This document shows positions 2,735 through 2,931 of a DNA stretch of 4,159 nucleotides, piece after piece. This DNA comes from Escherichia coli. GTDB taxonomy: Bacteria > Pseudomonadota > Gammaproteobacteria > Enterobacterales > Enterobacteriaceae. The stretch lies in the NCBI RefSeq assembly GCF_003334255.1, contig NZ_QOWU01000110.1. The stretch is one strand, 5' to 3'. How positions within the stretch are numbered: position 1 is the first letter of the stretch; the number at the start of each line of letters is the position of its first letter. Made by a program: the position numbers and the translations under genes. The notes below the pieces were generated by a model, which was not told the DNA's origin, did no database searches, and was given only the letters and a program-made list of their open reading frames with translations.

Positions 2735-2743
2735 TTATCCACA
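2735..2743 (+). promoter_or_regulatory. DnaA box, perfect consensus TTATCCACA
   Basis: Exact 9-mer TTATCCACA, located about 100 bp upstream of the iterons and next to the AT-rich repeats. This is the standard layout of iteron-type oriV. Confidence 0.6.
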
Positions 2744-2762
2744 GGCTCGTCGTTAAGTTTTT

Positions 2763-2803
2763 AGATCTTGTTTTTAAGATCTTGTTTTTAATACTTGTTT
2801 TAG
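2763..2803. repeat. AT-rich region of oriV: three tandem 14-bp direct repeats (AGATCTTGTTTTTA x2, then degenerate ATACTTGTTTTAG), the first two each carrying a GATC Dam site
   Basis: Repeats read directly at 2763..2776, 2777..2790 and 2791..2803. The block is AT-rich and sits between the DnaA box and the iterons, consistent with a DNA-unwinding element. Confidence 0.6.
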
Positions 2804-2845
2804 CGCCAAAATTCCTTATAGAAAACAAAATGTTACAACGCTATA

Positions 2846-2931
2846 GGTAATATGATTTAAGGTAAAGGTAATATGATTTAAGGTGTTTAGGTGGAGGAAT
2901 TTAAGGTAAAGGCAATATGATTTAAGGTAAT
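2846..2931 (+). repeat. Four RepA iterons (21-23 bp direct repeats, core TTTAAGGT)
   Basis: ggtaatatgatttaaggtaaa (2846..2866), ggtaatatgatttaaggtgtt (2867..2887), taggtggaggaatttaaggtaaa (2888..2910), ggcaatatgatttaaggtaat (2911..2931). The TTTAAGGT cores are spaced 21, 23 and 21 bp apart, about two helical turns, and lie immediately upstream of repA. Confidence 0.8.

Follow-up and report, generated by a model that had tools for sequence, protein, structure and literature searches.

The window analyzed here, a stretch of 4,159 nucleotides from Escherichia coli, is one complete circular plasmid of 4082 bp, because its bases 1-77 recur at 4083-4159 as a 77-bp overlap. The plasmid carries mobA, the gene of a MOBQ4 relaxase and a large open reading frame on the minus strand that runs off the window start; mobC, at 2240-2494; and repA, on the plus strand at 3027-3728, which encodes a Rep_3 initiator of 233 amino acids with two winged-helix domains, WH1 and WH2. 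The repA start codon (ATG at 3027) is preceded by GGAGG at 3014-3018, and a terminator-like hairpin with a T-run lies at 3748-3769, just 3' of the stop codon. Between repA and the end of mobA there is a tandem repeat (3917-3947) of the 10-bp unit TCGAAGAACA in 3.1 copies, and two relatives, L019 and L020, lack exactly one unit of it (3922-3931). No Rfam family matched, and therefore no known antisense control RNA is present.

RepA contains the Pfam domains Rep3_N (1.3e-35, residues 7-153) and Rep3_C (9.7e-20, residues 166-223). It is similar over its full length to RepE of F (1REP; E 8e-14, residues 8-225) and, in the WH1 domain only, to RepA of pPS10 (1HKQ; E 1e-10); it is also homologous to the pi protein. 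The same sequence is annotated in the plasmids pFV9873_1 and pSE11-6 as a 'replication initiation protein' (WP_001281397.1).

The segment comprising the origin region and repA (2600-3730) is 100% identical to that of several 4082-bp E. coli plasmids and 99.7% identical to that of pE2022_4 (KT693143) and pFV9873_1 (KT693144); over all 4082 bp, pSE11-6 and pFV9873_1 show 5-6 differences from the window (five in pSE11-6). PLSDB holds 445 related plasmid records, nearly all mobilizable and about 4.07 kb long, whose hosts are Escherichia, Salmonella, Shigella and Klebsiella. The host range of the family appears to be confined to Enterobacteriaceae. MOB-suite typing of two matching records that we inspected gave MOBQ and the replicon rep_cluster_1778. 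The MOBQ41 plasmids with a Rep_3 initiator include pE2022_4, pSE11-6, pFV9873_1 and pIGWZ12, according to passages of PMC6856555 (pE2022_4 and pFV9873_1 in its Table S2). The traits of this MOBQ41/pIGWZ12 group are all found in the window: a cryptic backbone of about 4 kb, a MOBQ4 relaxase, MobC, a Rep_3 initiator and homology to the listed members. Records of the pIGWZ12 type are 84.3% identical to the window over the origin and rep.

For the comparative analysis we used a set of 23 family plasmids, including pIGWZ12 itself (NC_010885, our L003), and an alignment of the 440 bp 5' of repA in 12 plasmids from six lineages, which are 76-87% identical to the window there. Despite this divergence, the architecture of the elements described below is conserved across all six lineages. 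Some of the related records are of interest in other respects. In L021 (NZ_CP075728.1) the origin and repA are nearly identical to those of the window and the roughly 70 substitutions are concentrated in mobA (302-2029); the modules for replication and for mobilization therefore recombine independently of one another. Origin DNA 86.6% identical to window positions 2600-2947 also lies at 4001-4350 of L025 (NZ_CP116982.1, pE6474.1), a 156-kb IncFIA/FIC/IncR conjugative plasmid, near IS26 and ISKpn26 and with no annotated rep gene adjoining it; cointegration may have left this copy behind. Some PLSDB records, of 8166 and 12124 bp (NZ_CP035724.1 and NZ_CP148571.1 among them), hold two or three copies of the origin and rep in about two to three times the unit length, and represent either multimers of the plasmid or artefacts of assembly. 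One record of 3201 bp that shares 2600-2763 is a partial linear assembly and was set aside as a relative.

The most upstream element is a block at about 2607-2655, GGTGATATGCGCTGAACCCGCATGAATACTGGATTTCCACAGGGTTG, which is nearly invariant in the 12 diverged family members and contains TTTCCACAGG. In the lineage that has diverged most it is almost unchanged although the flanks differ, and it holds a small inverted repeat (ATGCG..CGCAT) together with a DnaA-like box; it might belong to the minimal origin or act as a priming signal. The DnaA-like box, ATTTCCACA on the plus strand at 2639-2647, has one mismatch to TTWTNCACA.

A perfect DnaA box, TTATCCACA, follows on the plus strand at 2735-2743. 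It had been predicted at this very place, and the scan and its conserved position in the family bear the prediction out: no other site in the window comes within one mismatch of the strict box, it is perfect in 21 of the 23 family plasmids and reads TTTTCCACA in the remaining two, and TTWTCCACAGG is kept at 2735 in all lineages. At least one site within one mismatch of the strict box occurred by chance in 92 of 200 shuffled sequences; by simple arithmetic, about 0.03 perfect 9-mers are expected in 2 x 4159 nt. A third site, ATATTCACA on the plus strand at 2930-2938, abuts the fourth iteron and also has one mismatch to TTWTNCACA. A DnaA-like box directly 3' of iteron 4 is present in all lineages, where the aligned site is TTATTCACA in pIGWZ12, the perfect TTATCCACA in L012 and TAATCCACA in L013. 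The boxes at 2930-2938 and 2639-2647 had been left out of the original prediction. Four DnaA boxes are reported for pIGWZ12 in the part of PMC6856555 that treats it, and the box at 2639 may be one of them. Since a relaxed scan of the window gave 8 matches against 7.9 expected, the number of relaxed motifs is uninformative, and it is conservation of position that supports the weaker boxes.

A candidate AT-rich unwinding element occupies 2757-2803 on the plus strand, with repeats at 2763-2776, 2777-2790 and 2791-2803. The first two units are AGATCTTGTTTTTA; the last is a diverged copy, ATACTTGTTTTAG. Three 14-bp repeats, two of them with GATC, had been proposed at 2763-2803; the positions and the GATC content hold, and the third unit is of 13 nt rather than 14. 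Tandem Repeats Finder (TRF) describes the array as 3.4 copies of period 13/14 with 88-90% matches. The repeats are found in all lineages of the 12-plasmid alignment, with two AGATCT in 11 of its 12 sequences, have a GC content of 27-30% and lie two mismatches from GATCTNTTNTTTT. Their duplex stability is about 3 standard deviations below the plasmid mean, which places them among the three least stable 45-bp windows, though not uniquely lowest, and folding of the region as a single strand gave no special structure (z = -0.27). No second arrangement of a DnaA box with AT-rich repeats exists anywhere in the 4082 bp.

The two GATC sites of these repeats, at 2764 and 2778, are the only ones in 2600-3026, and the original prediction took them as a hint of control by Dam; on this reading, initiation would depend on Dam and SeqA as at oriC and P1 oriR. 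Their placement inside the AT-rich repeats agrees with such a role, as does their retention in 11 of 12 diverged relatives, including lineages with a different repeat register, on a plasmid where GATC is otherwise rare (10 sites, one of them an overlap duplicate, against 17.3 expected from shuffles). However, oriC has 11 GATC sites, far more than the two found here 14 bp apart, and the origin of L011 has a single one. Moreover, the conservation of GATC can be explained without methylation, because both sites fall within AGATCT, which is reportedly the ATP-DnaA hexamer of the oriC 13-mers (Speck and Messer 2001). The literature searched contained no report of Dam dependence in the pIGWZ12 family, and we judge such dependence improbable.

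In the spacer between the AT-rich repeats and the iterons there is a weak candidate IHF site, AAACAAAATGTTA, on the plus strand at 2823-2835, with one mismatch to WATCAANNNNTTR; in pIGWZ12 the aligned site reads AATCAATATGTTA and matches perfectly. A scan with the IHF consensus gave 10 matches against 3.9 expected, scattered over the whole plasmid, and because one-mismatch matches are common in an AT-rich plasmid the site in the spacer is weak evidence.

The iteron array comes next and was correctly predicted as four iterons of 21-23 bp at 2846-2931, upstream of repA; TRF finds it with period 21, 4.0 copies and a score of 96. All four iterons are on the plus strand: iteron 1 (GGTAATATGATTTAAGGTAAA, 2846-2866), iteron 2 (GGTAATATGATTTAAGGTGTTTA, 2867-2889), iteron 3 (GGTGGAGGAATTTAAGGTAAA, 2890-2910) and iteron 4 (GGCAATATGATTTAAGGTAAT, 2911-2931). 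They start at 2846, 2867, 2890 and 2911, that is with helix-phased spacings of 21/23/21 bp, and adjoin the rep gene. Four iterons occur in every lineage and the spacing is 21/23/21 throughout, except for 22/22/22 in the L013 type. Within each iteron the 5' core varies and the 3' half is constant: three lineages have TTTAAGGT as the constant half, and L012 and L013 have TTYGGGGGT.

Between iteron 4 and the repA start codon there are further, inverted sequences related to the iterons (2960-3008), which the original prediction did not list. A palindrome, AAAGGCA-T-TGCCTTT, lies at 2960-2974, and its arms resemble the 5' core of iteron 4, AAAGGCAAT; at the same position L005 has an inverted iteron core (10 of 10 positions). 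A pair of inverted half-sites resembling the iteron core, GGGTATG ... CATTACCT, lies at 2981-3008. By eye, a putative repA promoter can be drawn from TTGCCT (2967-2972) and TATCTT (2990-2995) with a 17-nt spacer; it is weak, with 8 of 12 consensus matches, and an automatic scan upstream of repA gave no sigma-70 site above threshold. With the promoter placed there, the half-sites cover the -35 and -10 elements and the start site: the palindrome is a candidate RepA-dimer operator overlapping the putative -35, and the pair at 2981-3008 flanks the putative -10. The three core-like half-sites are at the same positions in all six lineages.

Comparison of the lineages links the iterons to the initiator. 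The core is GGYAATATGA in three of the four iterons of the window and in L005, GGTGGAGGAA in all four iterons of pIGWZ12, GGTGA... in the L006 type, GGTGAACATT in L012 and GGTGGAGCTT in L013, and these five core classes pair with five variants of the RepA WH2 domain. RepA of the window and RepA of pIGWZ12 differ at 25 residues, 13 of which are in residues 167-194 (Rep3_C/WH2), whereas L005, which has the same core as the window, has a RepA identical in residues 141-193, including the helix-turn-helix segment of WH2. The part of RepE that aligns with segment 167-194 lies immediately ahead of the conserved ...VNEIN... motif, and in the iteron WH2 of RepE is known to contact GTG on one strand and GtCA on the opposite one (PMC4980987); from this alignment we infer that the corresponding stretch of RepA is the WH2 recognition helix. 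The lineages with the L012/L013-type constant half differ in WH1, at Y56F, K66, N67, V70, Q71, A105 and A111, which fits a reading of the constant half by WH1.

The half-sites of the promoter also track the core class (GGYAAT, GTGG or GGTGA) in the six lineages. A crude score, self versus cross, of the iteron-core 10-mers against the promoter regions showed no clear diagonal, GGT being common to the cores, and the covariation of the operator therefore rests on two or three discriminating bases per site at three sites. As a side observation, L006, L007, L010 and L011 have the same RepA of 235 amino acids and differ in their first iterons (GGTGATATGA, GGTAATATGA, GGTGGGGGAA and GGTGGGGAAA), and some of them also in the spacer upstream of iteron 1; this variation looks like recombination breakpoints inside the iteron array.

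Taken together, 2639-3008 and repA form, with high confidence, a vegetative origin of the theta type and a putatively autoregulated initiator cassette, both belonging to a pIGWZ12-family (MOBQ41) plasmid. The Rep_3 iteron architecture that had been predicted is thus supported by the two Rep3 domains, by the homology to RepE and to RepA of pPS10 and by the membership of the family, and these traits of a Rep_3 theta origin are present: the gene of a WH1/WH2 initiator, phased iterons, covariation of iterons and initiator, and a DnaA box with AT-rich repeats similar to 13-mers. The elements, their conservation and covariation and the family membership are direct observations of this work. A different reading, that the repeats are mainly a locus of copy control and incompatibility, acting through titration or handcuffing, with the true initiation site elsewhere on the plasmid, could appeal to the iterons of pIGWZ12, which are reported as incompatibility determinants in the relevant passages of PMC6856555. 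Yet both roles fall to the same repeats in iteron plasmids (PMC4980987), the origin of pIGWZ12 is located upstream of rep, in the corresponding region (same passages of PMC6856555), and the rest of the 4082 bp has no other DnaA box joined to AT-rich repeats; initiation elsewhere is thus very hard to credit.

The steps of binding and melting at the origin of this plasmid are all inferred by analogy with F, pPS10, pSC101 and RK2. RepA monomers would bind the four iterons, whose phasing is about two turns of the helix, with WH2 reading the variable 5' core (GGYAAT...) and WH1 the constant half TTTAAGGT. Host DnaA would bind at 2735, where the box is perfect, and probably also at 2639 and 2930, where the boxes are weaker; RepA and DnaA, possibly with IHF bending the spacer, would then melt the adjacent AT-rich 13/14-mers and so allow DnaB loading. 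PMC4980987 reviews the contacts that WH2 makes in iterons, the 13-mers in the unwinding elements of plasmids and the part played by IHF at pSC101. RepA dimers would bind the inverted half-sites over the repA promoter and repress it, and iteron-bound RepA would limit copy number and determine incompatibility. The monomers of pPS10 RepA bind iterons and its dimers bind the operator (PMC2367726), a model that the layout of promoter half-sites and iterons matches.

Within this origin, iteron 3 stands apart, since it carries a pIGWZ12-type core in an array that is otherwise GGYAATATGA. Six of its 21 positions, all within 2893-2898, are unlike those of iteron 1, and it had been described as degenerate. 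The divergence is real, and the notion of decay is not upheld, because iteron 3 is identical to iteron 3 of pIGWZ12 over all 21 bp and has the pIGWZ12 core; the preceding GTTTA spacer is common to both as well. When iteron 3 was restored in a synthetic array to GGTAATATGA, 161 of 161 bases matched a natural plasmid, CP056320, whose RepA is that of the window and which has 12 differences in 4082 bp, six of them being the 2893-2898 block. The six-for-six match to the core of a sister plasmid favours short-patch recombination over independent mutation, and such recombination is most likely how the core was acquired.

Plasmids with a RepA identical to that of the window have a series of iteron 3 cores: GGTGGAGGAA in the window and L002, GGTGGGGGAA in pFV9873_1, GGGGGAGGAA in pSE11-6, GGTGAAGGAA in CP075728 and GGTAATATGA in CP056320 and CP077385. 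With a RepA one residue off, pNMEC-O75C has GGTGGGGGAA, and pSD4.0 and p52148 have GGTAATATGA. Relative to the window, the base changes in the iteron cores are T2892G in pSE11-6 and A2852G and A2895G in pFV9873_1.

The case for recombination is backed by an unbiased census of complete genomes. It took the place of a binomial hot-spot test on loci of our own choice, which was biased, several of them having been picked for their iteron differences; in the census, three BLAST queries of equal length (81 bp) were run against 5426 complete E. coli genomes. The query from the iteron array (2860-2940) had exact matches in 15 records, with 42 more at 95-99% identity, 38 at 90-95% and 111 at 80-90%; the query from the promoter (2941-3021) was exact in 71 of 76 records and at 95-99% in 5; and the query from the WH2-coding part of repA (3540-3620) was exact in 76 records and at 90-95% in 35. 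The iteron array, far more variable than the promoter or the WH2-coding part of repA, is therefore where an otherwise clonal replicon varies. Related iteron arrays are found in 205 of the 5426 genomes.

Given the core of iteron 3, a reduced affinity for the resident RepA is plausible, and the plasmid probably tolerates in iteron 3 a weak or non-cognate site. It might instead be a fully functional site of normal affinity, the heterologous core being of no consequence, as is somewhat suggested by the five different iteron 3 cores among plasmids with identical RepA, all evidently persisting, and by the L006-type lineage, where a single RepA goes with four different cores (GGTGATATGA, GGTGATATAA, GGTGAGGTAA and GGTGAGGAGA). 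Such tolerance would follow if RepA read mainly the constant half TTTAAGGT and the leading GGT and accepted any bases at positions 4-9, a mode of recognition that we regard as possible and rather doubtful. Most lineages, however, have four identical or near-identical cores, and the core class covaries with the WH2 segment of RepA and with the promoter half-sites. In the clade of the window, moreover, iterons 1, 2 and 4 are nearly constant and the variation is concentrated in iteron 3, which looks like relaxed constraint at one site. A normal affinity of iteron 3 is for these reasons a tentative, minority reading.

One iteron of the four appears free to vary, iteron 3 here and iteron 1 in the L006 lineage, and this freedom may reflect either neutral tolerance or selection for copy number or incompatibility. 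That the iteron arrays of the family are natural mosaics under rapid turnover is a more speculative proposal, and on the sequences at hand a doubtful one. If the turnover were selected, the odd iteron could serve to tune copy number, act as a decoy that titrates RepA made by a competing sister plasmid, or be an intermediate on the way to new incompatibility groups, in which the iteron changes first and WH2 after. Neither a heterologous, polymorphic third iteron nor a hypervariable array was found described in the literature searched, the primary pIGWZ12 papers lying outside its scope; the two together are a modest new observation.

The origin itself is already known, because it belongs to an experimentally characterised family: the pIGWZ12 family, its Rep_3 initiator and the map of its origin elements have been published, and pIGWZ12 derivatives already serve as cloning vectors. 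What is gained here is a precise comparative element map of the most common E. coli variant of this family. In addition, identical RepA proteins with different third iterons provide a natural series for asking how many cognate iterons an origin needs, and the same series is suited to the question of how new incompatibility specificities arise.

Among known systems the closest are the MOBQ41 prototypes pE2022_4, pSE11-6 and pFV9873_1, which are essentially the same molecule as the window; the few differences of pSE11-6 and pFV9873_1 include single-base changes in iteron cores. pIGWZ12 has the same 4-kb MobA-MobC-Rep_3 backbone and the same order of elements: the conserved block, the DnaA box, three AT-rich repeats with two AGATCT, the spacer, four iterons spaced 21/23/21, the DnaA-like box, the inverted repeats of the promoter and repA. 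The conserved block and the stretch from the DnaA box through the AT-rich repeats are nearly identical in the two plasmids, while the origin and rep as a whole are about 84% identical. They differ in the core, which is GGTGGAGGAA in 4/4 iterons of pIGWZ12 and GGYAATATGA in 3/4 of the window; in RepA, which has 230 amino acids in pIGWZ12 against 233, the 25 differences being concentrated in WH2 167-194; and in the promoter/operator, which cannot be aligned except in its layout. The two plasmids presumably represent separate incompatibility specificities. For pIGWZ12 it is reported, in the passages of PMC6856555 that cite Zaleski 2006 and 2015, that the origin and rep replicate autonomously and that Rep binds the iterons, and the location of the origin and the incompatibility mediated by the iterons are given there as shown.

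More distant systems share the plan of the origin. pPS10 RepA and F RepE are initiators with two winged-helix domains like RepA of the window, and pPS10 also has four iterons, of 22 bp each (PMC2367726), but the protein similarity is distant and the iteron sequences differ. In initiators of the pPS10 and F type the operator of the dimer is an inverted repeat sharing a half-site with the iteron (PMC2367726). The origin of pSC101, with its Rep_3 RepA, has a layout like that of the window. It consists of a DnaA box, an AT-rich region with an IHF site, direct iterons, inverted repeats over the repA promoter and repA. The IHF site is required for replication of pSC101 (PMC4980987), whereas that of the window is a one-mismatch candidate; pSC101 has three iterons of other sequences, and its DNA elements have no homology to those of the window.
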